Source: a virus. Taken from it: a stretch of 64,000 nt of DNA. The notes below the pieces were generated by a model. The model saw nothing but the letters and a program-made list of their open reading frames with translations. It was not told the DNA's origin and did no database searches. A program made the translations under genes and the position numbers. The DNA is taken from positions 60,716 to 124,715 of the IMG/VR virus record IMGVR_UViG_3300020450_000010; one strand, given 5' to 3'. Of the stretch, positions 2 to 28,917 are shown in pieces; position 1 is the first letter of the stretch; each line of letters opens with the position of its first letter.

Positions 2-3000
2 ACATTCACCATAACCTAAAAGAAAATTATATACGTCTTGCATTGTTGGTAGAATTGTGTTATAATTAAGTATAGTTTTAGTTGTTGCATATTCGTTGTA
101 TCTAAATATATCAACACTGAATGTTTGTTTAATAGGCGCACTAGCTGTATTTGGTTTGAAATATTCAAAAAACATTTTGTCATTATCATAACCATTTATT
201 TTGTATCCTGTTGCTACTTTATCTACAATTACGCCACTAATAAAATATTCAGCAGTTGGTTTGCTGTTGAATAAAATTGTAGTAAAGTTTTCCTCAGGTA
301 CAAATACTCTGCCTTTATCTTGGCTACTTTCCAACATGAATTTTTGATTGTTGTTTACAAAACCGCCTGCTTTTACAATAGGATTAAAATCCATACTGGA
401 CATTCTTGTTTGTATTGTAGTGCTACCAACATTTAATGACTTAGCAAATTCAATCACAGCATTTTGTAATCCACCAAAATATCTCTTAGGTTCTTCTGCA
501 AGCACTGTTTCTAGCACTGCTGATCCACTGCTTAATGTTAGCTTTGGATTGTTGTAATAGTCTTTACCTGCGTTTGTTACACTTACACTGACTACACTAC
601 CATTCTGCACGAAAGCTGTTAGTGTTGCACCACTACCAAAATTATCATTTATAACAATAGTAGGAGCACTTGTATAGCCTGTGCCTCCGTTTTTAACAAT
701 GACGCTTTCAATTATTTTTCCAGTTTGTAATACTCCGCTTACACCAGTAGCTTTAAAGTTAGAAAGTTTTTTACTGTCTACACTATAAATTTGAGGTTTA
801 TCATATGATGTCAAATCTTTTGTAGATCTTTCATTAAGTTTAAAATAATTGTTCACAGCAATTAAAGGTCTAGTTTTTGCTAGTGATAAAAACTCTGCTA
901 TTCTATATTCAGGACTGCGTCTCCATTCTGCTTCTACAGGTCCCCAATCGCCATATACAAAATCTTTTGTTCTGTTTGCTAAAGTTGGCGTACTCACTAC
1001 GTTTGCAGTATCAGGATCATTTAATGTAGCTGTGTTTGTTACCAAAGTATTGTTTGCCCAGTCATAGTTGTCATAGCTGTAATTAATATCAAAAACATCA
1101 TTAGTGCTAGGATCATTGACTTTACCATATCTTAATGCAGTAATCAATGCAGAACGTTTTGGTGCATTTGTCCAACTGTAATAGGTATTCCACCATGTAG
1201 GTTTTTTGTTATGACCTAACATTTCCCAAGGATGTGTATGTGGTCTGTCTGTGTTAAAGAAATAATGATATATTCCTCTCCAACCACCTATGTTTGGACT
1301 TACACTTGAATAGTTCCATGTAAACTTATCAGCACCACTGTAGTATGTTGTGCTTTGTAGGTCTGTGTAACTATTTGCTACTTTCCATTTATTGAATTCA
1401 CTTACAATTGAATTCTGTATTTGTGTCCAACTATATCTATTTGCCCTATGTGCATTAGGCATATAATTTTTGATATTGTCAACATTATCTAATGTAGAAT
1501 TCAAGTTGTTGTATATACGACACTCTAAGTCAAAAATTGCGGCATCAACTGGATCATATCCAGCTTTGCTTCTATCATATATTTCTGTACCTTTACGGAT
1601 ATGTATACTTCCATCGTGTCTGGTTATTACATTTGTTGTGGCTGTGCCATTGCTAGACTCACTATAATCTGATCTTAATTCTGGTGTGTAAGGTTTGATT
1701 AATCCAAGTTTTACCGCACTGTTAGGTACGAAACTTACACTGTCTCTTTTATACCATCTTATGTGTGTTTTTGCTACTCCACTAGAAGGATATGCTACTG
1801 AACCAGTGATAGTAACTTTATTACTGTCTAGTGTATAATCAATATCTTTAATTAGTGATCGCCAGCGTAGGTTGCCTGCACCATCATCATCTTGCACCCA
1901 AACTTGAACATGATTTTCTGTATCATCATATGTATTAACACTTTGAGGCAAATCAAAAACTTTTGTCATTGTTGTTTGAAAACTGTAATCTTTGCTTTCA
2001 TAATCTCTATACAATGCCATATTACTTTGTGCAAATTGCATTTCTTTATTTTTGCCAAGATTCATTTCTTCTAAAATCTTATCAACCATTTCATATGTGC
2101 TTTTGGTAGTATCCAATGTTTTGTGGATTTGTACAGCCTTGGTTGCAAATTTTTTCAAAAACATGCTGTAATTATTGCTTGCATGTTTTATACTTGCATA
2201 AAGATTTGTATCAGTATCCATAAGTAATTGACTTAACAATTCTGTACTGTATGGTTGTTGTCTAATTGTACCGCCAAACTCATGCACATGAGGAAGATTT
2301 CTATAATTGTTTGTGCCAAAATAACCACCAGTAAAACCTGGAATACTTGTCATCTGTTCACGCATGTGTTCTATTAAATCTCCAAATGTAATATTTGTAA
2401 AACTATTATTTTGTGGATTCAGCAAGTGTGTGTCGCTAGCTTGTTGAAATCCTTCAGCTGAATCACTGTAAGTGTTGTGTGTATGATACTCTACTTCGTA
2501 AATATCATCTACTGCTAGTCCGCCATTTATTGTCAATATATTATTGCTTAGTGTATAGTTACTGGTTTCTATTCTATTTCTAAATACTTTTATATCAGTA
2601 TCATTTGCAATAGTATTAAAGTAAATTACACCAAACGAATTAGGAGTTGCTGACAGCCTATATTTGATAGCAGTCACAGTGGGAGAAGTTACTACTATGG
2701 TAAAATCATTACCACTACCTGCTGTGCGTGTCAATCCACTACCTATTGCTGAACCGTCTATGTTTACGAATTCAACTTCTGACTGGGCGAACTGTGTTGT
2801 AATATTGTATGTGGTATTAGTTGAGAAAAATAATTCAGGATATTTGCCATTGACATCTGTCAAAACATTTGTTAATCCTGTATCCTTTTGTGTCTTTACA
2901 TTAATAAATCCATGACGTTTGAACATTGTAACATGTCTATCAGTTGCAAAATCTGTATATCCTAAATCAAATACCATTGGCAATTGAGAGTTTGCACTTG

Positions 3001-5200
3001 TAACAGTTTTGCTTATTGTTCTCTTAACAGGCTGTCCGCCTCGCACCAAACTCCAACCATTAAAAGCATTGCCATCGAAATCTCTATAAAAATATTGTCC
3101 TATTATTTCTTGGTTCAAACTTCTAAGTCCATCACTGCTTACTTTTGTGTATGTAAATCTATTGCTAAGGAATGGCATGCTAAAATTCAAACCTGGACTA
3201 TTGCCATAATCAGCATAGCTTGGACTAAATCCTAATGCGTCATCTTTTGCATTTGAATCATTGTGTACGTAATCAAATATACATGCACCAGTAAAATTAT
3301 TTTCAGGATATACAGTTGTGTTACTAAGTATTACTCCATCTAAATCATAAAGCTCTGCGAGCATACCTTCACTTCTGTGTGTTTTTTGTTGACCATATAC
3401 CCAAGTAGTGCCATTGTGATACCATTCACTACCTCCAAAGGCTTTTGCTTCTTCACCATCATCAAACTTTGTTGTGTTAAATGCATTTATGACAACAACT
3501 TTATCATTTGTAACTATGTTAGTACTGGATGGTCCAAAAATTTCTGTAAGTGTAATTGAACTGCCTATTCCACCTACTGTAAATATTTTTTCATTGTAAG
3601 TTGTATTACCGTTTCTTAAAAACAAAATACTATCACCATTCTCAAGCTCTTGAGGTGTTATCTGTTTCCAATATTCATAGTTCTCACCATGTATAGGATT
3701 TCTTGCTGTAATATGATTTTTGATACATTGCCAGTAAGTACGTTTTGTATTTGGAGAAGTGCCAAGGTCAACATAGTATTGATCACCTACTTCTGAACCT
3801 CCTACTCCTGCCGTCCATGCTGTATTAATACCTGTTATATTCCAGTCATACGCTGTTTGACCTACAATTGCTGTAGCAGGATCGATTGTATTGTCTTCAA
3901 TCAAATACGTTACATTTGCAATATGTCTTTTACCAAAGTTATATTTTTCAATACTAGCTTTGTATTCAATGATTGGTCTTACAGCTCTTACGCTGTCTTT
4001 TAAATAATCAGTATCAACTAAATTTTCAAATGTTATAATTGCTCTTGCGGTATCTTCATGTACCCAAAGGTTACTTCTTGCCCAAGCACTTTGGTCTGCT
4101 GAATATCTTTGCTCAACTACATAATCTCTTGTAGTCATTTTATATTCTTGTAAATCAAATGGTCTAAAGTCAAAACTACTTGCAGTTTCGTCAAACCCAG
4201 TTGGTTCTTGACTACTGTAAACTGTATGATTAATCCAAACTCTATCGCTATAACTACCTTCTACCTGTCCACTTATAAACTGTCTTGTAAGTTTTATACC
4301 ATTGGCATCACCCACACCATCAACTATATAAATGTCGCCTACTGGATAGTTACCACTTGTACTCTTAGAATAAAATGTGTGTATTTCAATTTCATCTGTC
4401 AATGCAGGAGCTGTTGCGAATGTAACTACACCAGTTGCACTGTTATATGAATAATGTGTTGTTAAAGTCTGTAGTAAATTATTTTTGTAAACTTTTAATG
4501 TTTGAGCTGTAGTTACTGTAGCAGTAAATGTTGTGTTGCCTGAACTGCTTTGAGTAAACCTATCGATCTGTGTTGGCATAAATCTAATACGCATACCATT
4601 TTGTAGTGCAAGTGTATTGCTTGTACTCAAAGCAGGAGTTGTATAGTTTACTTCACCTATCAGTGTATCAATATCAATTATATCAGTACTAGTTGCTTTG
4701 ATACTTGCTGGAGGTAATGTGTCTAATAACCAAAAATATTTGTGATAGTTAATAAACATATCATAGTTTATAGGTATATCAAGTGTGTAACCTTTTTCAT
4801 TTAAAAGTTTACTATGATTGTTAATATCAACTTCGTTGTATTTTAACGTGTTTAATAAATCATTGTAAGGCAAAACCTGTGTAATTGCATTTTGGTTTGT
4901 TTGATCTTTGTTTACCAATGCAGGTACAAATTGATAATTATCATCTGCTCTGCTGTCGTCAATGTAACTTGTGTTAACTGTGTCTTTGAAAAACTTCTGT
5001 CCTACATAATTTTTTACAGGTTGTAAACTACCTGTTGACAGCAATTGTTCCAGTGTTGTATCTAAAAACTGTTTGTTGACTTCTGTTTGGAAAACATTTG
5101 GTAAAAGACCAGTTATGTCTCTTGTACCTGTAAATTTTTTGCTTGCACCAGGAGTTGTAATTAGTGGTGCTACAATAGGATTTGCTTTGCGTTCGCTCAT
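2..5200 (-). CDS. Very large baseplate/virion structural protein (gp7-like wedge by position), 3'-truncated by the window edge, >1,730 aa
   Basis: Not in the ORF track because there is no stop in the window. The ATG at 5198-5200 overlaps the stop of the upstream gene (TAATG) and reads MSERKANPIVAPLITTPGASKKFTGTRDITGLLPNVFQTEVNKQFLDTTLEQLL. The same frame reads QDVYNFLLGYGEC at the window start. Only short shadow ORFs lie on the + strand. The whole frame was not checked codon by codon. Confidence 0.8.
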   Translation of the reverse strand, partial: MSERKANPIVAPLITTPGASKKFTGTRDITGLLPNVFQTEVNKQFLDTTLEQLLSTGSLQPVKNYVGQKFFKDTVNTSYIDDSRADDNYQFVPALVNKDQTNQNAITQVLPYNDLLNTLKYNEVDINNHSKLLNEKGYTLDIPINYDMFINYHKYFWLLDTLPPASIKATSTDIIDIDTLIGEVNYTTPALSTSNTLALQNGMRIRFMPTQIDRFTQSSSGNTTFTATVTTAQTLKVYKNNLLQTLTTHYSYNSATGVVTFATAPALTDEIEIHTFYSKSTSGNYPVGDIYIVDGVGDANGIKLTRQFISGQVEGSYSDRVWINHTVYSSQEPTGFDETASSFDFRPFDLQEYKMTTRDYVVEQRYSADQSAWARSNLWVHEDTARAIITFENLVDTDYLKDSVRAVRPIIEYKASIEKYNFGKRHIANVTYLIEDNTIDPATAIVGQTAYDWNITGINTAWTAGVGGSEVGDQYYVDLGTSPNTKRTYWQCIKNHITARNPIHGENYEYWKQITPQELENGDSILFLRNGNTTYNEKIFTVGGIGSSITLTEIFGPSSTNIVTNDKVVVINAFNTTKFDDGEEAKAFGGSEWYHNGTTWVYGQQKTHRSEGMLAELYDLDGVILSNTTVYPENNFTGACIFDYVHNDSNAKDDALGFSPSYADYGNSPGLNFSMPFLSNRFTYTKVSSDGLRSLNQEIIGQYFYRDFDGNAFNGWSLVRGGQPVKRTISKTVTSANSQLPMVFDLGYTDFATDRHVTMFKRHGFINVKTQKDTGLTNVLTDVNGKYPELFFSTNTTYNITTQFAQSEVEFVNIDGSAIGSGLTRTAGSGNDFTIVVTSPTVTAIKYRLSATPNSFGVIYFNTIANDTDIKVFRNRIETSNYTLSNNILTINGGLAVDDIYEVEYHTHNTYSDSAEGFQQASDTHLLNPQNNSFTNITFGDLIEHMREQMTSIPGFTGGYFGTNNYRNLPHVHEFGGTIRQQPYSTELLSQLLMDTDTNLYASIKHASNNYSMFLKKFATKAVQIHKTLDTTKSTYEMVDKILEEMNLGKNKEMQFAQSNMALYRDYESKDYSFQTTMTKVFDLPQSVNTYDDTENHVQVWVQDDDGAGNLRWRSLIKDIDYTLDSNKVTITGSVAYPSSGVAKTHIRWYKRDSVSFVPNSAVKLGLIKPYTPELRSDYSESSNGTATTNVITRHDGSIHIRKGTEIYDRSKAGYDPVDAAIFDLECRIYNNLNSTLDNVDNIKNYMPNAHRANRYSWTQIQNSIVSEFNKWKVANSYTDLQSTTYYSGADKFTWNYSSVSPNIGGWRGIYHYFFNTDRPHTHPWEMLGHNKKPTWWNTYYSWTNAPKRSALITALRYGKVNDPSTNDVFDINYSYDNYDWANNTLVTNTATLNDPDTANVVSTPTLANRTKDFVYGDWGPVEAEWRRSPEYRIAEFLSLAKTRPLIAVNNYFKLNERSTKDLTSYDKPQIYSVDSKKLSNFKATGVSGVLQTGKIIESVIVKNGGTGYTSAPTIVINDNFGSGATLTAFVQNGSVVSVSVTNAGKDYYNNPKLTLSSGSAVLETVLAEEPKRYFGGLQNAVIEFAKSLNVGSTTIQTRMSSMDFNPIVKAGGFVNNNQKFMLESSQDKGRVFVPEENFTTILFNSKPTAEYFISGVIVDKVATGYKINGYDNDKMFFEYFKPNTASAPIKQTFSVDIFRYNEYATTKTILNYNTILPTMQDVYNFLLGYGEC

Positions 5201-8200
5201 TAGTATCCGCTCCCTGATGAACCACCACCGCCAGAACTACTACTTCCTCCGCCGGTAACACTTACGCTTGCACTTTCAGCAATTGTTGTACTGTTGCCAG
5301 TGATGCTATTTGCTACAACAATATTATTTGATTTTACTACGGGTAAAAATAATTCATCTCCAAAACTTGTAATTTCAAATAAGTCTCTAGATTCTGTTTC
5401 ACTACCAACTGGTTGTATGGTAATTTGACTTATCTCTCCAACTAAATTGTTATGAATATATGCCGCCATTTCAGTAAAGTAAAAATCTTCTCCAAAATCC
5501 CAATTGTTAATGTTAAAGTAATCATTTATAAGTGCAATTACTTTTTGCTTAACTTCTGTATCACTTAATGTGCTATTAGTAGTTTTGGTCACATTAAACC
5601 TAGCTTGTAACTCACCACTTGCTAAATCACCAAACAAAATTTTATATTTTACAGGTCTGTAAATTACTTGGTCACTAATTGATTTTTTGGTTTCTAAACT
5701 TGTAAATAAATTTGTAAGTTCACTAATAGTTGGTGGACTTGGTTTTGTTTCACTTCTACCATCATAGTTTGCCCAAGTTCTAAAATCACTGTCATAACTA
5801 TTGAGTAATACATAAGTGTCTACAATATTTGTCACTGACGGATCTATCAAATTAAAGATATCACTTATTCTGTCATACTGCATGTGCAGGTTTGCTTTAC
5901 CATTTACAGTTGTTGATCCACTAGTATCAAATACAGTATATTCAAATCCGTCAACTGTTTTTGTACCTAACTTAATTGTTTGTCCAGCAAGTACTTTGTT
6001 AAAACTTTCTGGATCAGTAGGATAATCACTATTATCAGGATCAGCTACTGTAACTCTTACATTATGAGGATCTGTATAACCATCTTGATATGTAAAATAT
6101 CCAAACAAGTTAAACTTATAATCTTTTCCTAATGGAGTTGCATTAGTATCAGTGGTTTTATTCATGCTTAAAACTTTAATACAATCTCTTTGTGGTTTTT
6201 GCGTTTCACTGCTAAATGTTTCATTAAAATTTAAATTACCAAACTTTAGTTTTTGTGTGCTACCAAATACCATCTGTGTTCTTCTAGTCAACACTTCCCA
6301 TTGAGTTGAACTATAATTCAACCTAATTAACCAACTGTTATCTCTGCCAGTATTTGTATTATCTGCTTCGTACTGTCTACTCCATTGTGTTGCTAAATTA
6401 TTTGCTGAAGTATTAGCAGGAATATTTGCTGTTTCGATTACTTTCCATTGTTGTGCATTTGCATCATATCTTAGTGCAAAACTATTTTGTGCATTTATTT
6501 TGCTAACAACATCTGCTTTTGTTGTTGCATCTAAATCTGTATTAATGACAGGTACTATTCTATTGACTCTTGCACCTGCATTGATAATGCCACTTAATAC
6601 TACTGCGCCTTTACCTGTGTTGTCTATACCTGTTGGTGCACCAGCACTATCATCATCTCCAATTCCGTCTTTGTAAAGTCTATCTATTTTTACCCATTGT
6701 GTTGGAGCGTCTAAAACTGTGGTAGTAGCTGTAGCATTGCTACCTCCTCCACCTGATATTGTGACAATTGTGGTTGCATCATATCCACTTCCGCTGTTGT
6801 TAACAACAATGTGGTCAACTACACCTGCTTGAACAACTGCTGTAGCTGTAGCGCCTGTGCCACTTCCACTTATGGTAACAGTTGGAGCACTTGTATATCC
6901 AGTACCGCCTTCTACTTTGGTAATTGCACTAATATAACCTGTCTTAAATGGTGTGCTTATAAATTCAACCAAACTGTTAAGACTTGCTTTTTTCAAACTG
7001 TTGGTTTGTGTAAGTCCTACTCTTTGCACATATGCAGTTCCGCCTGTGTTGTAGGTAAAATATCCACTGCATCCATTTGCGCCTTTTGTAATTTGATTCC
7101 AACGAAACACATTTGTTTCATCATTTAATGTTGAATTTACAACTGTAATACCTGCTGTAGTATCATTGAAGTCACTTTGACCATTATACCCTGTGCTTGA
7201 GTATCCTTGTCTATTATAATAAAAATTCTTTAGCTCAGGATTACTTAACAATGGTTTAATATGTAAATCATAAATTTGTGCGCCTGACAATGTTGTAGGC
7301 ATACTGATTAGACTTCTATTTGTTACATTGTTTTCATATACGTAGCCATCATCTGTATACTGTGTAGCATCATTGTATGTTGCTGTTGGATCATATATGT
7401 CTCTAAATCTACTGTGTCCGCTGTGTACTCTATTGATACTTTTTATCTTGCTAATATTCTCACTTACTGTCACAGGAAAAATACTATAGTCATCTGCTGT
7501 AACCATTCTATCCTGTGTAGAAAAATATCTTGGAGCATTCGCCTTAATACTAGCAATGCTTTCACGTTCGCTTGCATTTGTTACATTTGTTTTAAGACTG
7601 CAAATAAAGGTAGCATTATAATTGTTTCCGTCACTGCCAACATATTCTACAGTTAAATTTGTATTGTTAAAATTATTAGGTTGTAATGAATAAGTTAGAT
7701 TTAATCCAGTTCTATACCACACTCTTATTATACCACGTGGAATGTTACCAAAGTTACCATCTCCAAAAATAATACTAATCTGATCATTTTCTCTGCTTGC
7801 AATTGTATAAACATCTCTGATATTATTTGCTTTCGCATTGAAGATAGTATTTGCGCCAAACTGTTTGTCTACTCTTGTCCAGCTTTTTTGCACTGTGCCT
7901 ACTTCGTCTATTGTTTGCACCCATACGTTGCCACTTGCAACATTTTCAGAATTAATGTCCAACACAATATTAGAAATGCCTTCGTCGATTGTAAAGTCTT
8001 GATATTCTAAACTGCCTTGTTTAAAACCTACAAAAAATCCTGTATCAGCACTGGTGTTGCCACTATTATCATTTTTATACAATAAATCTACTACACCATA
8101 CGGATCTGGTGTTTTCTCTTCAAGTGTTTTTGTTGCAGTGTTTGCTTTTACACTGTAGAAACTAAAAGTTGTACTTCTATTGTTTACTAAATTTTGAAAA

Positions 8201-8796
8201 TTTCTTACTGCAATATTTGAAATACTGTTTGTTCTGTAAATTTCATTGGTGATACCACCACTGCTAAATTTGCTGAATGGAGAACCATACTGACTGCTAG
8301 ATTGAAATATTGCATTCATAATTGTTAAAAAGTTTTGATAACTGTTAGGGTCTGTGCTATCATCAAATTGCACACTTACATTTGCTAAACTTTGGCCACT
8401 TGCATCAAATACATTTTCATTTGTTTTTACACTATCTATTTTAAGATAACCGTTAGCAACTACATTTCTGGTTGGAGTATATCCTAAAAATTCAGCAATA
8501 CGTAAGGCGCTTTCTCTGCGTTCTGCTGTGCTTAAATAATTTTCTCTGCTGGCTAGGTCTGCTCTAAATGCTAAGTTGTGACCTAGAAAAGCCATAAGTT
8601 CTATTAAACTTACAAATTCACTTGAGTTGATCCAGTCATTGTAGTTTTCTGGATAGTTTTTGTTTATGTAGTCCACCATTGCGTTTCTTATGGTTTCATA
8701 ATCATACGCTTGGAAGTTTGCTTCGCTGAAACTTTCGTAAACAACGCTGAAGTCTTCTGCGGCAAATAAACTACTTTGTCTTGCGCCTTGTGCCAT
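5200..8796 (-). CDS. gp6: Baseplate wedge protein, T4 gp6-like (1198 aa)
   Basis: N-terminal DYETIRNAMVDYI...YNDWINSSEFVSLIELMAFLG...ENYLSTAERRESALRIAEFLGY and IIFGDGNFG...ESIASIKANAPRYFSTQDRMVTADDY match the gp6/baseplate-J pattern. It is adjacent to a gp25-like gene. Confidence 0.85.
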   Translation of the reverse strand: MAQGARQSSLFAAEDFSVVYESFSEANFQAYDYETIRNAMVDYINKNYPENYNDWINSSEFVSLIELMAFLGHNLAFRADLASRENYLSTAERRESALRIAEFLGYTPTRNVVANGYLKIDSVKTNENVFDASGQSLANVSVQFDDSTDPNSYQNFLTIMNAIFQSSSQYGSPFSKFSSGGITNEIYRTNSISNIAVRNFQNLVNNRSTTFSFYSVKANTATKTLEEKTPDPYGVVDLLYKNDNSGNTSADTGFFVGFKQGSLEYQDFTIDEGISNIVLDINSENVASGNVWVQTIDEVGTVQKSWTRVDKQFGANTIFNAKANNIRDVYTIASRENDQISIIFGDGNFGNIPRGIIRVWYRTGLNLTYSLQPNNFNNTNLTVEYVGSDGNNYNATFICSLKTNVTNASERESIASIKANAPRYFSTQDRMVTADDYSIFPVTVSENISKIKSINRVHSGHSRFRDIYDPTATYNDATQYTDDGYVYENNVTNRSLISMPTTLSGAQIYDLHIKPLLSNPELKNFYYNRQGYSSTGYNGQSDFNDTTAGITVVNSTLNDETNVFRWNQITKGANGCSGYFTYNTGGTAYVQRVGLTQTNSLKKASLNSLVEFISTPFKTGYISAITKVEGGTGYTSAPTVTISGSGTGATATAVVQAGVVDHIVVNNSGSGYDATTIVTISGGGGSNATATTTVLDAPTQWVKIDRLYKDGIGDDDSAGAPTGIDNTGKGAVVLSGIINAGARVNRIVPVINTDLDATTKADVVSKINAQNSFALRYDANAQQWKVIETANIPANTSANNLATQWSRQYEADNTNTGRDNSWLIRLNYSSTQWEVLTRRTQMVFGSTQKLKFGNLNFNETFSSETQKPQRDCIKVLSMNKTTDTNATPLGKDYKFNLFGYFTYQDGYTDPHNVRVTVADPDNSDYPTDPESFNKVLAGQTIKLGTKTVDGFEYTVFDTSGSTTVNGKANLHMQYDRISDIFNLIDPSVTNIVDTYVLLNSYDSDFRTWANYDGRSETKPSPPTISELTNLFTSLETKKSISDQVIYRPVKYKILFGDLASGELQARFNVTKTTNSTLSDTEVKQKVIALINDYFNINNWDFGEDFYFTEMAAYIHNNLVGEISQITIQPVGSETESRDLFEITSFGDELFLPVVKSNNIVVANSITGNSTTIAESASVSVTGGGSSSSGGGGSSGSGY

Positions 8797-17525: not shown

Positions 17526-18533
17526 ATGACATTTTTTAAACAAGCCGCTTGTTTTACAGATATTCACTTTGGCAATAAAAACAACAGCAAACAACACAAT
17601 AGAGATTGTAGTGAGTTTGTGGATTGGTTTATTGAACAAAGCAAAGACTGTGAAACTTGTATATTCTTAGGCGATTGGCATCATCATAGAGCTAGTGTTA
17701 ACGTGAGCACACTGAATCACAGTGTAGAAAATGTAGGCAAACTCAGTCGTGCATTTGAACATGTGTACATGATTATGGGAAATCATGATTTATACTACAG
17801 AGAAAAACGTGATCTAAACAGTTTACCTTATGCAGGTCTATTTGAAAATGTAACACTAGTAGAAGATGCACTTGTAAAAGATGATGTTGCACTTATTCCT
17901 TGGCTAGTAGGAGACGAGTGGAAAACCTTACAGAAAACAAAATGTAGATATATGTTTGGACACTTCGAACTTCCTTACTTTAAAATGAATGCAATGGTGG
18001 AGATGCCAGACCATGGCGGTATAAATGCAGAACACCTACAAGGTCCTGAATATGTGTTCACTGGACACTTTCACAAAAGACAAAATAAAGGCAATGTACA
18101 CTATTTGGGTTCACCGTTTGGTCACAACTATGCTGACACATGGGACGACGATAGAGGTATGATGAAACTCGCTTGGGGAGGCACACCTGAGTATATTGAC
18201 TTTGGTGGACCTAGATACAGAACTGTGCCTTTAAGCAGACTAATTGATCAACCCGACTCTGTATTAAATGACAAGACATACTGTCGAGCAACACTAGATA
18301 TTGCTATCAGTTATGAAGAAGCTAGCTTTATAAAAGAAACATTTAGCCAACAGTACAATGCTAGGGAAATAGCACTTATACCAAGTAAAAAAGAAGAACA
18401 TGCACAAGACTGGAAAGTAGTTGATGACATTGAGGTTGAGAATGTTGATCAGATAGTGTATAATAGTTTGAACGCTGTAGACAGCGATATGATTGATAAA
18501 AAAATTCTAGTGGACATATATAACTCCTTATGA
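17526..18533 (+). CDS. gp47: Recombination endonuclease subunit, Mre11/SbcD-like
   Basis: Metallophosphoesterase motifs TDIHFG, LGDW, GNHD, FGHFE, TGHFH. Confidence 0.92.
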   Translation: MTFFKQAACFTDIHFGNKNNSKQHNRDCSEFVDWFIEQSKDCETCIFLGDWHHHRASVNVSTLNHSVENVGKLSRAFEHVYMIMGNHDLYYREKRDLNSLPYAGLFENVTLVEDALVKDDVALIPWLVGDEWKTLQKTKCRYMFGHFELPYFKMNAMVEMPDHGGINAEHLQGPEYVFTGHFHKRQNKGNVHYLGSPFGHNYADTWDDDRGMMKLAWGGTPEYIDFGGPRYRTVPLSRLIDQPDSVLNDKTYCRATLDIAISYEEASFIKETFSQQYNAREIALIPSKKEEHAQDWKVVDDIEVENVDQIVYNSLNAVDSDMIDKKILVDIYNSL

Positions 18534-20299
18534 TTACATTAAAAGATATAACAATTAAAAATTTTATGAGTGTAGGAAACGTAACACAAGCTGTACGTTT
18601 TACTGACAACGGACTTACACTTGTACTAGGTAATAATTTAGACTTAGGCGGAGACGGTAGTAGAAACGGTACAGGTAAAACTACCATAATTAATGCACTA
18701 AGTTATGCTATATTTGGCAACGCACTTACAAACATACGTAAGGATAATCTTGTAAACAAAACAAATAGTAAACAAATGCTGGTTACTTTGGATTTTGAAG
18801 TAGAAGGAACAAAATATAGGATTGAAAGAGGTAGAAAGCCAAATGTGCTTAAATACTATGTCAACGATCAAAACGTTGATGAAGACGAAGCACAAGGTGA
18901 AAATCGTCAGACTCAAGCACAAATAGAAAAACTGTTTGGTATGAGTCACGACATGTTTAAACACATTGTTGCACTAAACACATACACCGAACCTTTTCTC
19001 AGCATGAGGTCAAATGACCAACGTGCGATAATTGAACAACTATTAGGCATAACTATGCTCAGTGAGAAAGCAGAGGTTCTCAAAGAACAACAAAGGTTGA
19101 CTAGAGATGCAATCAAAGAAGAAGAATATAGAATTAAAGCTATTGAAGAAGCAAATTCCAGAATTGAAAAAAGTATTAGTGATTTGGAAAGAAGGCAGAA
19201 GATCTGGCGAGATAAACAGACGGCTGATGTCGAAAGTATCAAACAACAAATAAACACACTGGAAAAAATTGATATCAAAACTGAACTGAATAATCATGCA
19301 TTACTAAACGATTATTTGGAAAAAAAGAATCTGCGAGATCAAGCTGAAAAGTGGAAGTCAAGTATAGAAGCTGACAATAGAAAACAAGACACACTTATAA
19401 ACAAACTAGAACAAGAAGTTTTATCTTTAAAAGAACACAAATGTCATACTTGTGGACAAGATATACACGATGAAAAACAAGTAACTATTTTGCGTGATAA
19501 AGAAGAACAACTCGGTGATGCACGTAATACAGTTATGACAAACACAGAACAACAAACAGAATGGCAACAAGCAATTGACGAATTAGGAGAGCTTGGTCAA
19601 ATGCCAGTTACACATTACAATACACTACAAGAAGCATTAGAACACCAAAATACTCTCAACAATCTTAACACTGAAGTTAGCAGAACCGAAGGAGAAAATG
19701 ATACATATCAAGAACAAATAGACACACTCAGAGATACCGGCATGCAAGAAGTAGAATGGGATAATATGAATGATCTAAATGTTCTAAAGGATCATCAAGA
19801 CTTTTTGTACAAACTGCTAACAAACAAAGACAGCTTTATTAGAAAACGTATCATTGAACAAAACCTACAATATTTAAACAGTAGACTGGCGTACTATTTG
19901 ACTAAACTAGGATTACCACACGAAGTACAATTCCAGCCTGATCTAACAGTTGAAATTACAGAACTAGGCAGAGATTTGGACTTTGACAATCTAAGCAGAG
20001 GCGAACGCAATAGACTGATACTAGGACTAAGTTGGGCTTTTAGAGATGTATTTGAAAGTATGAACACACCAATTAACTTTTTAGCTATTGACGAACTTAT
20101 TGATAGTGGTATGGATACAAACGGTGTTGACAGTGCATTAAGTGTACTTAAAAAAATTGAACGTGAACGTAACAAAAACATATTTTTAATCTCACACAGA
20201 GATGAACTTGTAGGTCGTGTAAACACAATACTACAAGTAATAAAAGAAGGTGGCTTTACTATGTTCAGTAATGATACGGAATTTGTAGATGCGAAGTAG
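18530..20299 (+). CDS. gp46: Recombination ATPase subunit, Rad50/SbcC-like
   Basis: KNFMSVG, Walker A NGTGKTT, coiled coil with CHTCG zinc hook, LSRGE signature, Walker B FLAIDE. Confidence 0.93.
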   Translation: MITLKDITIKNFMSVGNVTQAVRFTDNGLTLVLGNNLDLGGDGSRNGTGKTTIINALSYAIFGNALTNIRKDNLVNKTNSKQMLVTLDFEVEGTKYRIERGRKPNVLKYYVNDQNVDEDEAQGENRQTQAQIEKLFGMSHDMFKHIVALNTYTEPFLSMRSNDQRAIIEQLLGITMLSEKAEVLKEQQRLTRDAIKEEEYRIKAIEEANSRIEKSISDLERRQKIWRDKQTADVESIKQQINTLEKIDIKTELNNHALLNDYLEKKNLRDQAEKWKSSIEADNRKQDTLINKLEQEVLSLKEHKCHTCGQDIHDEKQVTILRDKEEQLGDARNTVMTNTEQQTEWQQAIDELGELGQMPVTHYNTLQEALEHQNTLNNLNTEVSRTEGENDTYQEQIDTLRDTGMQEVEWDNMNDLNVLKDHQDFLYKLLTNKDSFIRKRIIEQNLQYLNSRLAYYLTKLGLPHEVQFQPDLTVEITELGRDLDFDNLSRGERNRLILGLSWAFRDVFESMNTPINFLAIDELIDSGMDTNGVDSALSVLKKIERERNKNIFLISHRDELVGRVNTILQVIKEGGFTMFSNDTEFVDAK

Positions 20300-20507: not shown

Positions 20508-20769
20508 AGAAGATGATTACATTGTAGGTATGGACGGTTTTAACAACAAAGATTACAAAGGCGATAGTGACTTTCAACATTGGTTAGTACACGAATCACC
20601 ACTTGTTGATGTAAGTGTAAATGCTGATCCTATTACTTTGACAACATCAAGTATAGATAATCACAACTGGCAACAAACCATGAGCACTAAATTGCCAATT
20701 GATATAATGCATACACTATATCCTAAACAAATGAAAGAAGAAGCAGATAATGATTACCTTCCTTTTTGA
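20500..20769 (+). CDS. Small acidic hypothetical protein
   Basis: The ORF fills the gap between its neighbours; the ATG at 20500 (MNEEDDY) is the probable start. Confidence 0.55.
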   Translation: MNEEDDYIVGMDGFNNKDYKGDSDFQHWLVHESPLVDVSVNADPITLTTSSIDNHNWQQTMSTKLPIDIMHTLYPKQMKEEADNDYLPF

Positions 20770-21454
20770 TGTAGATGGTACACTAACTGATGCACGTAAA
20801 CCTATTAATGTAGAGTTTGAATACTTTATGAAAGACTTTATAATGCGTGGTAATAAATGTATGATTGTAACTGGCAGTGACAGAGAAAAAACTGTAGAAC
20901 AGATCGGTTTAAGCCTCACTTTACGCTTTGCAAGGGTGTATCATTGTAGCGGAAATCATGTGTTTGAAGACACAAAAGAAGTCAAAAAGAACGACTGGCT
21001 ACTATCAAAAGAACAGCATGAATTCTTAGAACAATACTTGCATAAGATAAATTATAACGAAATGACAGGCAATCATATTGAACAACGCACAGGCACTGCT
21101 AATTTTAGTATCGTGGGAAGAAATGCTGATTGGAATCAACGTGCAAGATATGCACTTTGGGATAGTATAAACAAAGGTAGAGAAACTGTTGCTATGTACT
21201 ACAACCAAGAATTCAAAGACAGTGTAGCACAAGTAGCAGGTGAAACAAGTATTGACATTTTTCCAGTAGGATGTGACAAAAGTCAAGCAATAAAAGAACA
21301 AGAAGGTACAACTATATATTTTGGAGACAATTGTTTTCCAGGCGGTAATGATTTCACAGCCGCACAAGCAAGCACACACTTTTATCAAATTGATAACGGA
21401 TATAAGCAAACTTGGGAAATATTAAAAAATACATATATTTCGGTTGACAAATAA
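20750..21454 (+). CDS. HAD subfamily IIB phosphomannomutase-like enzyme
   Basis: FDVDGTLT, VTGSD, IEQRTGTANFSIVGRNA, SIDIFPVGCDK and YFGDNCFPGGND match eukaryote-type PMM motifs. Confidence 0.8.
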   Translation: MITFLFDVDGTLTDARKPINVEFEYFMKDFIMRGNKCMIVTGSDREKTVEQIGLSLTLRFARVYHCSGNHVFEDTKEVKKNDWLLSKEQHEFLEQYLHKINYNEMTGNHIEQRTGTANFSIVGRNADWNQRARYALWDSINKGRETVAMYYNQEFKDSVAQVAGETSIDIFPVGCDKSQAIKEQEGTTIYFGDNCFPGGNDFTAAQASTHFYQIDNGYKQTWEILKNTYISVDK

Positions 21455-21473
21455 CAAAAACGGCATATATACT
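21444..21473 (+). promoter_or_regulatory. Sigma70-type promoter upstream of the GIY-YIG gene
   Basis: TTGACA-N18-TATACT. Confidence 0.6.
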
Positions 21474-21491
21474 AGTTGCTAAACAACACAA

Positions 21492-21920
21492 ATGCAATGG
21501 ACTTATCAAGGCAAAATAGTAGAAGAAATTAGTGAGGAATACATAGGTTTTGTATACCTTATTACCAATCTCACAAACAATAAAAAATATATCGGCAAAA
21601 AGTTAGCAAAATTTAAAGTAACTAAAAAACCCCTCAAAGGCAAAAAGAACAAAAGGCGTTCAACAAAAGAAAGTGATTGGAGAGACTATTGGGGATCCAG
21701 TGACACATTGAATGCAGACGTAGAACACTTAGGCCCAGAAAACTTCACAAGAGAAATACTGTACTACTGCACCAGCAGAGGCGAACTAAGTTATTTAGAA
21801 GCCAAAGAACAGTTTGACCGTGAAGTTCTTAAAACTGATGAATATTACAACGGCATTATAAATGTACGAGTTGGCAGTTCTAAGGCACTTATCGAATCAC
21901 TAAACAGACACCAGTCGTAA
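21492..21920 (+). CDS. Stand-alone GIY-YIG endonuclease (EndoII/Seg-like), 142 aa
   Basis: GFVYLITNLTNNKKYIGKK, YWGSS, catalytic Glu helix ELSYLEAKEQ and YYN. It has a very basic insert (KFKVTKKPLKGKKNKRRSTK). Confidence 0.85.
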   Translation: MQWTYQGKIVEEISEEYIGFVYLITNLTNNKKYIGKKLAKFKVTKKPLKGKKNKRRSTKESDWRDYWGSSDTLNADVEHLGPENFTREILYYCTSRGELSYLEAKEQFDREVLKTDEYYNGIINVRVGSSKALIESLNRHQS

Positions 21921-22295
21921 TATAGCTTCTCAGAAAAAAGCATTGAGATTGTATACAAGCTGTACCGTCGGATCTTGCTCGAAGCAAACGAATCAAATGA
22001 GTGGGCTCTACTGTGCCATTGTAACCCACGGATAGCTCGAAAGTCGTCGTTATGGCTTAGAGTGTTTCTGCGTTTTAAGCAGTATGTAAAGGGGTAAAGC
22101 AAAACCGCCTCTGCCTAGCAATAGGTTTTACTATAACGATGCGTAACTGTAGACGGGGTAATGACCGTTTCGTTTTTTTTGCACTTGGCTGTAACAAGCT
22201 AAGTGCGACTGAAAACAGGGTAATAACGAAATTAATCAAATAAAGAAATATCAAACGAAATGAAATGAGTTTGACGATGAGCTTTAGCTCTTCGA
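21921..22295 (+). ncRNA. Candidate structured non-coding RNA (family unknown)
   Basis: The longest intergenic gap in the window, and GC-richer than its flanks. It has about ten helices, many with G-U pairs that form only on the + strand, and a GCAA tetraloop (see findings). Confidence 0.55.
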
Positions 22296-22297
22296 TA

Positions 22298-22546
22298 CTA
22301 TAGTTGAGTTGTTATTTTACCTTTGCGTTGATTCATTTGTTGCTTTTGTTTATCTATGTTTTCTTGTAACATTTCTTTGATCTCTAAGAAATCTCTTATA
22401 GGCATATCTAATAATTCATTTCTACTAAAAGCACCATTAGTATGAATCTGAACATCATTTATCATAGTTCGATAATTTTTGTTTATGTCTTCGTGGCGTT
22501 TAACAAGTTCATCAACTTTTGCTTTGTCATTTTTAGTTAGACTCAA
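22298..22546 (-). CDS. Small protein coupled to the gp26-like gene (possible hub assembly factor)
   Basis: 82 aa with FSRNELLDMPIRDF; overlaps the stop of the upstream gene. Confidence 0.6.
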   Translation of the reverse strand: MSLTKNDKAKVDELVKRHEDINKNYRTMINDVQIHTNGAFSRNELLDMPIRDFLEIKEMLQENIDKQKQQMNQRKGKITTQL

Positions 22547-23382
22547 TTGTTGCTGAAAAAAAAACTTGGATTATAACTTACTGCACCTTTAAAATCTTTT
22601 GCACAATCTCCGTTGCTACAAGTGAAATTAAATTCTCGTTTCATTCCATTGCCATTTAGTTTGGCTTGTTCTTGTTCAAGTTTAGACACAGTGTTTAAAT
22701 CAACACTGGATAACCAATCCAGTATATGCTGTGGTTCTGTAACTTTGTTTCCGTCTGGAGTTTGAATATACTCAATTCCGTCTTGAACACTTGCTAATCT
22801 ATATGCGGCAATGTTTTCTACAAGTTGTTTAAATGTGGTTTTTAATTCTTCGTTTGCTCTTTCCTCACTTACACTTATTGCTTGTAAAATTGAATTGGAT
22901 GCAATTTTTTGAACATTCAATGCATTAACAGCAAACAGTGTATTTGGTTTTAAACTAATAGTAAGTTCTTGCATTTCAACTAGCACGGGACTGGAGTTGT
23001 CTTTAATTTGACTGAGTACACTAGGTAAGTCTATCTCAAATTCACTCATTCTTTCACAATGAGTACATCTGCTTTCTACATTCATTTTTTTATCATATGT
23101 GGCGGCTCTACTTGCCAATAGTATTACATCAATGTCTGGTAGTGCTAGTTCTTTTGGATTTGGTATGTCTGGGGCAACACTTGCCACCATATCAAATAAT
23201 GCTTCTCCATTGTACAGTGTATCAGGGATATTCAATTTCATTTCATCAGCAATAGTCATAGGTTTTATACCTATTTCGTCTTCTGCTGTAAGATTTGGTT
23301 TTTGCTTCATCCAATTACCTTTGGTTGGTAATTTAACAAAGATTTCTTTATTCCTATAATAGTCTTGTAACGGATTGTTCAT
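22543..23382 (-). CDS. gp26: Baseplate hub assembly protein, gp26-like
   Basis: NPLQDYYR...VKLPTKG...IKPMTIADE...DIDVILLASRAATY, CTHC, and a C-terminal C-x4-C followed by NPSFFF. Confidence 0.7.
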   Translation of the reverse strand: MNNPLQDYYRNKEIFVKLPTKGNWMKQKPNLTAEDEIGIKPMTIADEMKLNIPDTLYNGEALFDMVASVAPDIPNPKELALPDIDVILLASRAATYDKKMNVESRCTHCERMSEFEIDLPSVLSQIKDNSSPVLVEMQELTISLKPNTLFAVNALNVQKIASNSILQAISVSEERANEELKTTFKQLVENIAAYRLASVQDGIEYIQTPDGNKVTEPQHILDWLSSVDLNTVSKLEQEQAKLNGNGMKREFNFTCSNGDCAKDFKGAVSYNPSFFFSNN

Positions 23383-28278: not shown

Positions 28279-28917
28279 ATGCTTACCTCACTTAAAGAAC
28301 ATCTTACATACAATCAAGCAAATATCGTTACTGAAACATTAGATGAAGGTAACGGTAAGAGCTTGTATATGAAAGGTATTTTTATTGAAGGTGATGTACG
28401 CAATCAAAACAATCGTATCTACACAAAAGAAGAAATTCATAGTGCAGTTAAAAGCATTAATGAAAAAATTAAAGGTGGGTACAGTGTATTAGGTGAAGCT
28501 GATCACCCAGATGACCTCAATATCAATTTAGATCGTGTAAGTCACATGATTACTGAAATGGATACTGATGGCGCAAATGGGATCGGCAAACTTAAAATTC
28601 TACCAACTCCAATGGGAAATATTTGTAAAACCCTATTAGAGAGTGGAGTAAAATTAGGCGTGTCAAGCCGAGGCAGTGGCAATGTTAACGACAACGGCAT
28701 AGTAAAAGATTTTGAAATCATTACTGTTGATATTGTAGCAAATCCAAGTGCACCAGACGCTTATCCCGATCCAATCTATGAAAGAATTATGAATCATAGA
28801 CGGGGTAATGTGTTAATGGATGTCGCTGATGCAACTAGACACGACCGTGGCGCACAACGTTATCTCCAGGAAGAGGTGACCAACTTTATTAAAAACCTGA
28901 GATATAGGAGAGATTAA
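28279..28917 (+). CDS. gp21: Prohead protease
   Basis: GIFIEGDVRNQNNRIY, LGEADHP, LGVSSRGSG, DIVANPSAPDAYP. Confidence 0.93.
   Translation: MLTSLKEHLTYNQANIVTETLDEGNGKSLYMKGIFIEGDVRNQNNRIYTKEEIHSAVKSINEKIKGGYSVLGEADHPDDLNINLDRVSHMITEMDTDGANGIGKLKILPTPMGNICKTLLESGVKLGVSSRGSGNVNDNGIVKDFEIITVDIVANPSAPDAYPDPIYERIMNHRRGNVLMDVADATRHDRGAQRYLQEEVTNFIKNLRYRRD

Follow-up and report, generated by a model that had tools for sequence, protein, structure and literature searches.

Time and again, RNAs that combine a pseudoknot with invariant single strands have proved to be ribozymes, sensors of ligands or protein machines, and comparative genomics has added the 'ornate' RNAs GOLLD, ROOL and OLE – large, multi-helix and pseudoknotted, some of them phage-borne – whose function is unknown. 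The small RNAs CsrB and RsmZ, with their repeated loop motifs, serve as protein sponges. In phage T4, stable RNAs are cut from a precursor in the transfer RNA (tRNA) region, and homing-type nucleases sit beside tRNA and other conserved genes, an example being segB, a GIY-YIG homing gene inside the T4 cluster of tRNA and stable RNA genes. The locus described here invites comparison with all of these: positions 21921–22295, plus strand, of a 64,000-nucleotide (nt) stretch of DNA (the window, by which we always mean the whole stretch) within the 124.7-kb IMG/VR virus record IMGVR_UViG_3300020450_000010, which comes from an uncultured marine T4-like myophage. It begins at the base after the stop codon of a stand-alone gene for a GIY-YIG nuclease.

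These ~375 nt are a genuine structured non-coding RNA (ncRNA). The initial annotation, made by a model from the letters of the DNA, had drawn a multi-helix ncRNA here and preferred to pair it with the nuclease, as a guide or scaffold or as an RNA antitoxin, keeping an independent phage ncRNA in reserve; it is the reserve that fits best. Our explanation, to which as a whole we give a probability of roughly 55%, is that the locus is the gene for a stable, intricately folded RNA that is independent of the nuclease, would act in trans through two short sequences (the twin boxes), has the nuclease gene as a neighbour and represents a new subtype of a large, almost uncatalogued twin-box RNA superfamily of uncultured marine T4-like phages.

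Conservation and covariation

Ocean samples commonly contain T4-like phages of this kind. A motif from the invariant core of the RNA, chosen independently of the nuclease and scanned on viral and metagenome sequences, is present in 97 viral and 111 metagenome stretches, and nhmmer confirms 77 of the 80 loci taken from the latter, viral and metagenome contigs overlapping to the extent that many metagenome loci are the same contigs as viral ones. A search with the GIY-YIG protein gathered 80 viral loci (L003–L082), and in 15 of the loci selected in this way blastn recovered the gap sequence at 71–94% identity, each time directly after the GIY-YIG gene (one further match, of 36 nt, is due to chance). 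A scan of 185,579 species genomes returned a single match, in a metagenome-assembled genome of Bryobacteraceae, which has no nhmmer support and is ascribed to chance, as are the equally unsupported matches on three soil metagenome contigs; no bacterial carrier of the RNA, whose relatives we call family A of the twin-box phage RNAs, was seen among those genomes.

Conservation runs from the base after the GIY-YIG stop codon to 22294, and in sequence comparison the RNA is far better conserved than its protein neighbours: the convergent genes at 22298–23382 are 22–58% identical in relatives in which the RNA is 72–94% identical. The locus is non-coding, because the variable columns of the aligned relatives are spread flatly over the codon phases (74/70/69) and most pairwise indels (338 of 425) are not multiples of three. 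The same two observations rule out a hidden small gene, and a 13-codon frame starting in the first of the twin boxes is broken in relatives, by eye, by a variable T-run.

What the sequences conserve is a set of base pairs. Column pairs of an alignment of 54 distinct full-length sequences (A2) were ranked by mutual information, and a structure of 75 pairs in 16 helices was tested against controls in which every 3′ partner was slid by one to three columns. Pairing is found in 91.9% of 3997 cells, compared with 35–47% when the partners are slid; 44 of the 75 pairs show double-sided changes, compared with 7–13; and the covariation score of 0.331, compared with 0.05–0.07, is reached by none of 500 shuffles. 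Covariation is thus present in the regions downstream of homologous GIY-YIG genes, and the multi-helix ncRNA of the initial annotation is upheld. Across the helices, G:U cells outnumber A:C cells by 378 to 56, and the plus strand is therefore the RNA strand, as had been concluded earlier from G-U pairs in the window alone. That the helix content exceeds chance is not borne out by folding energy: for the plus strand, the minimum free energy has a z-score of −1.62, with seven of 100 shuffles equally stable, which is not significant and is not counted here as support, and for the minus strand the z-score is −0.78.

A separate observation concerns the assemblies. Of the contigs of the 80 viral loci gathered with the GIY-YIG protein, 32 break off no more than 700 nt past the GIY-YIG gene, compared with two that do so over the same distance before it. 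The RNA is probably far more conserved than its flanks among co-occurring strains, by analogy with ribosomal RNA genes, and its conservation may explain why the assemblies of these phages break at this locus.

Architecture of the RNA

The fold comprises a 5′ clamp (helices P1 and P2), a hairpin (P3), a pseudoknotted core with a loop–loop kiss between hairpins H3 and H4, a tail bearing the boxes and two terminal hairpins (hpA and hpB). In all 54 full-length sequences, the modules occur together, in one order and at tight spacing.

The clamp is closed by P1 (21925–21985), in which GCTTC at 21925–21929 pairs with GAAGC at 21981–21985; all 54 sequences keep it as a perfect complement of five base pairs (bp), using five pair types, and it encloses both the invariant word GCATTGAG (21940–21947) and the variable hairpin P2 (21951–21965; 21951–21955 with 21961–21965). 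P2 is 71.8% paired in a region where the alignment is poor, and all five of its pairs change on both sides. P3 (22001–22029) follows, with an outer stem GTGGG/CCCAC (22001–22005 with 22025–22029), an inner stem (22009–22011 with 22021–22023) and a conserved loop; it is 100% paired, and five of its eight pairs show compensatory changes, such as GTG/CAC to CCA/TGG.

The core starts with Pa (22031–22068), formed by 22031–22032 with 22067–22068 and 22035–22038 with 22060–22063, in which all six pairs change on both sides and one (22038:22060) shows five pair types. The long-range stem Pb (22046–22140; 22046–22053 with 22133–22140) is 92.3% paired, with five of eight pairs double-sided, and its 5′ strand sits in the loop of Pa, so that the two helices cross as a pseudoknot. 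The positions that flank this 5′ strand, 22045 and 22054 (A2 columns 141 and 151), covary with each other as C:G, U:A and A:U and are paired in 47 of 54 sequences, which is incompatible with Pb and may point to a base triple or to a second, competing fold. Within the span of Pb lies the hairpin H3 (22069–22081; 22069–22071 with 22079–22081, loop GUUUUAA), which is 94.4% paired with zero double changes, and whose loop kisses that of H4: GUUU at 22072–22075 pairs with AAAC at 22102–22105 (the kiss spanning 22072–22105) in 100% of cases, and two neighbouring pairs of the kiss covary (U:A 41 and C:G 13 in one; U:A 27, G:C 23 and G:U 3 in the other). The short helix Pc (22082–22131; 22082–22084 with 22129–22131), 91.4% paired and with compensatory changes in two of its three pairs, surrounds H4 and H4b. 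H4 itself (22090–22112; AGGGGU with GCCUCU around an 11-nt loop) is invariant in the 54 sequences, including its two G:U pairs, and reads AAGGGU/GCCCUU in the diverged member L077, while H4b (22114–22125; CCTA/TAGG) is 91.4% paired, with three of four pairs compensatory.

The tail opens with H5 (22151–22170), a hairpin that bears box 1 in its loop, is 68.7% paired and is followed by eight T residues at 22173–22180. In the window, H5 and this T-run look like a terminator; box 1 is conserved, the T-run and the outer pairs are not, and the T-run is absent in several subgroups. H6 (22181–22206), a 10-bp hairpin that separates the boxes, is 99.3% paired, with 78 G:U cells against no A:C cell and a closing pair that is U:A in 29 and C:G in 25 sequences. 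The linker GACUGAAAAC leads into box 2 (together 22207–22227), after which an A/U-rich linker with no conserved pairing (22228–22250; 23 nt here, up to ~110 nt in relatives) separates the boxes from the terminal hairpins. Of the latter, hpA (22251–22274; TCAAAC/GTTTGA) is 90.1% paired, with compensatory changes in five of six pairs and an undecided strand preference (19 G:U against 16 A:C cells); it is possibly a terminator of the minus-strand genes as well. The last, hpB (22275–22294; CGATGAGC/GCTCTTCG, eight pairs with one U-U), is compensatory in all four counted pairs, is perfect at 7–8 bp in other subgroups and closes the sister subfamilies too; it is likely to be the 3′ end of the RNA. 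RNAalifold further proposed a pairing of CATTG (21941–21945) with CGATG (22275–22279), words that align in 35 of 54 rows and show zero covariation.

Seven of the 11 helices drawn in the initial annotation hold on the 54 homologues. Five do so largely as drawn (GTGGG/CCCAC, GCCTA/TAGGT, GCACTTGGCT/AGCTAAGTGC, TCAAAC/GTTTGA and GAGC/GCTC); of its long-range stem, the central eight pairs stand as Pb, and its AGGGGT helix is invariant, in a shifted register with GCCTCT as partner. AGACGG/CCGTTT, the present H5, holds in part, and three helices fail: TATAGCTT/AAGCTGTA, TTGC/GCAA and CTTAGAGTG/CGTTTTAAG. P1, P2, Pa, H3, Pc and the H3–H4 kiss had been missed, and the GNRA loop of H4b, GCAA, is real in the window and not conserved in relatives.

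The twin boxes

The tail shows a short word twice, GGGUAAUGAC and GGGUAAUAAC, on either side of the rigid hairpin H6. Box 1 (GGGGTAATGAC, 22155–22165) is repeated 62 nt downstream as box 2 (GGGTAATAAC, 22218–22227), and these are the sole two copies in the 124.7-kb record. In family A, the pair reads GGTAAT/GGTAAT, CAAAT/CAAAT (four distinct sequences) or CAAAG/CAAAG. When 47 related loci were searched for direct repeats at a spacing of 45–85 nt, the longest one proved to be the homologous box pair in 24. Each lineage has its own word – ACATGAAG, ACATGATG, ACATAAAG, ACATAAT, GAATAAT or ACTAATTA, at spacings of 54–64 nt, and two copies of GGCAAGT at locus L069 – and the boxes are entirely different between subfamilies whose GIY-YIG proteins stay 71–79% identical. 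Across the aligned lineages, then, the boxes appear as short (7–10 nt), exposed sequences that change in step, and they offer a concrete handle on finding the partner of the RNA.

Possible resemblances of the boxes (to the 530 loop of 16S ribosomal RNA, start sites and RegA operators) were dropped, the boxes of other lineages being quite different. Separately, the word TAGACGGGGTAATG (22150–22163, box 1 with its 5′ flank) has a 14-nt identical copy at 28797–28810 in the window; such a repeat is expected roughly once in three such searches, and the copy lies within chance.

Sister sequences and a wider superfamily

Another conserved sequence, poor in open reading frames (ORFs), lies downstream of the GIY-YIG gene in 40 of 49 more distant loci. 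An nhmmer search with the A2 profile finds 17 of 83 nuclease-selected loci and misses this sister sequence, which by eye shares several modules with family A: a GGGG...AACCGCC word, a GACUGAAA linker, twin boxes and both end hairpins. Covariance models take the link part of the way. The core model R2 matches L077 (E 5e-10), L033 (E 0.0024) and, weakly, L045, L048 and L072 (E 0.38–0.67), with no match in family B; the tail model R1 matches L014 (E 6e-8), L069 (E 0.013) and, at the cognate place, five family-B loci (E 0.056–0.46). The superfamily thus rests partly on likeness of modules by eye, with partial support from these models.

One subtype touches a catalogued RNA. At L064, positions 1465–1611, 13 nt after the stop codon of a homologous GIY-YIG gene, lies a Polynucleobacter-1 RNA (RF01718; 107.8 bits, gathering score 37), followed by ~350 nt of further modules that by eye resemble the H4 word, the twin boxes and the end hairpins. 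The sole mention of this family that our literature search found is a table in Weinberg et al. 2010 (PMC2864571), which lists it as a possible cis-regulator from Burkholderiales and from fresh water or estuary. Polynucleobacter-1 may instead make up just the opening domain of a larger RNA of phages.

The nuclease: probably a neighbour, not a partner

Whether the nuclease is the partner of the RNA or stands beside it can be judged from loci in which the two differ in arrangement. The sister subfamily was fetched by a pattern of RNA features only, without use of the nuclease (at least 120 matches), and at one of 58 sister loci, L249, the position of the GIY-YIG gene is occupied by the gene for a PD-(D/E)XK endonuclease (PF24608, E 1.6e-27); its ORF of 171 amino acids (aa) ends ~277 nt before the RNA pattern, and RNA and boxes are intact. 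At L069, the 3′ domain of the RNA has the hub operon on one side and the GIY-YIG gene on the other and is upstream of the latter, with everything on one strand (2336–2994). In the nearest named phage, Methylophilales phage Melnitz, the DNA-level match is confined to the GIY-YIG gene, which there follows nrdB and is followed by a late-promoter-like gap; its product is 79% identical, while Melnitz gp46 is 26% identical, and the 3′-domain (tail) model R1, a weak model of 12 base pairs, finds no match in the whole 141.5-kb Melnitz genome.

The same disproportion holds across subfamilies, where the GIY-YIG proteins are 71–79% identical, compared with 52–60% for gp46 and 22–31% for the hub protein, a pattern to be expected if the gene passes from one phage to another. 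Seven of the 80 loci gathered with the nuclease have no other protein in common with the window, and in the four of these that were inspected (L034, L041, L043 and L047) ORFs, and no RNA, lie directly downstream of the GIY-YIG gene. The gene is thus far more similar than its flanks and occupies different sites in different phages, as mobile homing endonuclease genes do. The RNA, for its part, has no variable guide-like end: the initial annotation had suggested looking for a variable segment flanked by conserved structure, and in the 54 sequences both ends are conserved helices. Taken together, the comparisons suggest that what lies beside this very conserved RNA gene is a mobile, Seg-like GIY-YIG gene that has settled there, rather than a dedicated partner.

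Weighing the explanations

In our preferred explanation, the RNA would be made as the 3′ part of an early transcript from the GIY-YIG promoter; no separate promoter for it was found. Its compact fold and terminal hairpins would make it stable, and its action would be in trans: the boxes would form a platform with two docking sites for a single partner that differs from lineage to lineage, perhaps a protein dimer or a nucleic-acid target bound in two copies. As for the GIY-YIG gene, it would move horizontally and park beside the conserved RNA gene.

Signs of transcription are compatible with this and amount to a weak hint. Three metatranscriptome runs contain small shares of the 6-kb stretch around the locus, and contigs from RNA libraries (Logan; X18, X19, X20 and X23) are scattered pieces of several genes, from the phage or its relatives, at similar depth. 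One of 246 nt spans 21999–22227 and another 22244–22294, both from close relatives; the parts left uncovered carry no meaning.

Several points weigh against the explanation. The RNA-library data consist of contigs alone, at a depth like that of the neighbouring genes and with no ends, strand or level. The partner of the boxes was not found: in the 124.7-kb record, the sole perfect complement is the locus' own antisense strand. A single box pair is no longer than the repeats of shuffled sequence, which is why the signal lies in concerted change at a fixed place, and an argument from position and concerted change draws here on few independent changes. As to the nuclease, the linkage that the initial annotation looked to is near-absolute: the family-A GIY-YIG gene ends 167–186 nt before the core motif in 76 of 80 viral loci (the remaining four have less than 240 nt of upstream sequence), it is directly upstream in every metagenome locus with sufficient flank (58 of 58), and a GIY-YIG gene is upstream in 57 of 58 sister loci. 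The exceptions, L249, L069 and Melnitz, are single loci, the L069 match is marginal (on a rough calibration), and the empty Melnitz search proves little, given the weakness of the model. The GIY-YIG protein, moreover, is intact and strongly conserved over 145 distinct sequences, which is unusual for a purely selfish homing gene. Finally, what we treat as a single molecule could be a set of separate small RNAs, formed by the modules.

That last possibility is the rival that survives best, and we regard it as unlikely. At least two modules – clamp and core, twin-box tail, terminal hairpins – would be cut from one precursor, as stable RNAs are in the T4 tRNA region. The shuffling of modules between subfamilies speaks for it, the core model reaching L077, L033 and, weakly, L045, L048 and L072 without touching family B, to which the tail model extends weakly; so do L064, with Polynucleobacter-1 as an extra first domain, L014, which retains the 3′ part alone, and the terminator-like hairpin with its eight T residues, which divides the window RNA at 22180. 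Against this stand the constant company, order and spacing of the modules in family A, a T-run that is not conserved and the fact that no processing sites are known.

Slightly less probable is a cis-acting 3′ untranslated region of the nuclease messenger RNA that stabilises or controls it or ends two convergent transcription units. It would account for an RNA that begins right after a stop codon with no promoter of its own found, and for last hairpins that stand at the end of both transcription units, with hpA showing little preference for either strand. Some 260 nt of pseudoknotted, kissing structure with invariant single strands nevertheless exceed what termination or protection needs, most of the flanking genes are less conserved than the RNA, and the RNA is retained beside a different nuclease (L249) and upstream of the GIY-YIG gene (L069).

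The near-fixed adjacency leaves a functional link between nuclease and RNA perhaps one chance in ten, and the preferred reading of the initial annotation, a nuclease–RNA particle, is correspondingly doubtful. In such a particle the GIY-YIG protein would bind the RNA through its basic segment, the boxes would pair or aim the monomers and cleavage would depend on RNA. GIY-YIG enzymes have a single active site, and two copies are needed for a double-strand cut, a requirement that two boxes would suit; the protein lacks a DNA-binding domain of its own and has a conserved basic segment, and gene and RNA share a strand in near-invariant adjacency. What tells against the particle is that the boxes differ fully between subfamilies whose GIY-YIG proteins are so alike, that L249 retains the sister RNA beside a PD-(D/E)XK nuclease, that the RNA precedes the GIY-YIG gene in L069, that no RNA was detected in Melnitz beside so similar a protein, and that a guide-like end is lacking. 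We know of no RNA-guided GIY-YIG enzyme, and a literature search for one found none. A bolder reading, and a long shot, takes the boxes as a lineage-specific 'address', recognised through base pairing or through a protein that matches it, and the RNA as a programmable two-site adaptor. In its boldest form, two copies of the domain-only GIY-YIG nuclease, or of another nuclease that adjoins, would be brought together on the RNA as an RNA-dependent double-strand cutter; if true, RNA-assisted nucleases of a new class would exist in the abundant phages of the ocean.

Very improbable is a DNA-level element in which the boxes are iteron-like origin sites or a nuclease recognition site and the RNA structure is incidental: the direct repeats do lie about six helical turns apart (62 nt; 54–64 nt in relatives) and change together, and the locus adjoins recombination genes at a junction of transcription units, but the compensatory changes and G:U excess around and between the boxes bespeak selection on the plus-strand RNA, and DNA sites leave 16 covarying helices unexplained.

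Genomic setting and the nuclease gene

On the plus strand, a gp46/Rad50-like gene (18530–20299) is followed by two small ORFs, a phosphomannomutase-like HAD gene (20750–21454; PF03332, E 5e-21; phrog_29277), which stands between the recombination genes and the nuclease, and the GIY-YIG gene. Among the compared loci, the HAD gene is limited to the lineage that carries RNA family A. On the minus strand, convergent late genes for an 82-aa ORF and a baseplate hub protein (22298–23382; PF12322, E 8.3e-11; phrog_150) lie outside the RNA. The 377-nt gap between the GIY-YIG stop codon and the 82-aa ORF (21921–22297) is, as the initial annotation had it, the longest ORF-free gap of the window, provided that a 1733-aa ORF running off the left end counts as coding. 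The GC content of 21921–22295 is 0.405, compared with 0.371 window-wide. Elsewhere, the minus strand of the window carries two very long ORFs at 2–8796, the 1733-aa one, which leaves the window, and another of 1198 aa.

The GIY-YIG gene (21492–21920, plus strand) encodes a stand-alone SegE-type nuclease of 142 aa (Pfam PF19835, phrog_447). It is a bare SegE_GIY-YIG domain at residues 3–123 (E 3.5e-35; 121.4 bits against a cut-off of 25), and the motif columns – GFVY.ITN, Y.GKK, SDW..YWGSS, F.REIL and YYNGII, which we take to be the catalytic GIY, YIG, Arg, Glu and Asn motifs – are kept in 145 distinct homologues. Pfam finds no second domain, and the protein is thus without the C-terminal DNA-binding domain joined to the catalytic domain of Seg-like enzymes, as had been noticed from the sequence. 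Its Lys/Arg-rich segment, first read as an insert, belongs to the family profile: it lies inside one unbroken Pfam match and is conserved across the 145 homologues. A sequence search for a solved structural relative found none. The gene also has the sigma70-type promoter ascribed to it (21444–21473, plus strand; TTGACA-18-TATACT, 11 of 12 consensus matches), which most family-A relatives keep as TTGAC-N17/18-TATA.

Relatives of the protein occur in 521 phage records, 339 of them from Synechococcus phages. PHROGs and many GenBank phage records name the family (phrog_447) 'NAD synthetase', which looks like a propagated misnomer. In the sister family (L182–L261), the GIY-YIG genes have a conserved GGTAAGTA word 5–7 nt before the start codon, which is absent in family A.

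Comparison with known systems

A fixed junction in these phages carries an RNA that is no less elaborate than a riboswitch or small ribozyme and that is uncatalogued save for the Polynucleobacter-1 domain of one subtype. No Rfam family matches the window at gathering score, 21400–22700 gives chance eukaryotic matches and nothing else at E up to 10, and nine sister loci give nothing at E 1; ARAGORN finds no tRNA or transfer-messenger RNA in the window or in 35 related loci, and a literature search found no paper describing this RNA.

Three familiar kinds of element were considered and rejected. A group I intron with a GIY-YIG homing gene fails for lack of an Rfam match and with flanking genes that are complete and separate. 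A type III RNA antitoxin consists of tandem repeats of ~30–40 nt upstream of a toxin gene; here there are two words of 7–11 nt, 62 nt apart and downstream of the gene (no tandem-repeat finder was run). As for plain intrinsic terminators, there is one terminator-like site (22151–22170 with its eight T residues), its T-run is unconserved and 14 other helices are conserved; the notion of plain bidirectional terminators and nothing more is refuted for 21921–22210, and termination is possible as a second role of the last two hairpins.

Of the described RNAs, Polynucleobacter-1 comes closest in position, being an orphan structured RNA that occupies in L064 the genomic spot of the window RNA. The latter does not match it even at E 10, in a comparison for which L064 is the positive control, nor do the nine sister loci at E 1, and Polynucleobacter-1 is at most an extra first domain of another subtype; PMC2864571 tabulates it as a possible cis-regulator rather than a phage RNA. 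With GOLLD, ROOL and OLE, the window RNA shares large size, many helices, pseudoknots and an origin in comparative genomics, whereas it has no Rfam match, is smaller (~375 nt) and has traits of its own in two co-evolving single-stranded boxes and a fixed place by a nuclease gene. The HEARO and omega RNAs of IscB and TnpB likewise combine a large structured RNA with a small nuclease gene on the same strand; unlike them, the window RNA has no Rfam match, no guide end, no transposon ends, a GIY-YIG in place of a RuvC/HNH nuclease and a neighbour that can be exchanged, as in L249. CsrB and RsmZ, with short repeated single-stranded words on a structured scaffold, provide a working model for the boxes, although here there are two boxes, of a different and lineage-varying sequence, on a far more elaborate scaffold.

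For the nuclease gene, the nearest parallel is with the free-standing Seg homing endonucleases of T4: in both cases a small GIY-YIG gene with its own promoter lies beside a highly conserved RNA gene, and distant phages resemble each other much more closely in the window-type gene than in the core genes that flank it (79% against 26% in Melnitz). It differs from the Seg enzymes in having no C-terminal DNA-binding domain and in being nearly fixed in its lineage rather than sporadic, and the locus makes it possible to test how mobile genes for nucleases exploit conserved RNA genes as landing sites.

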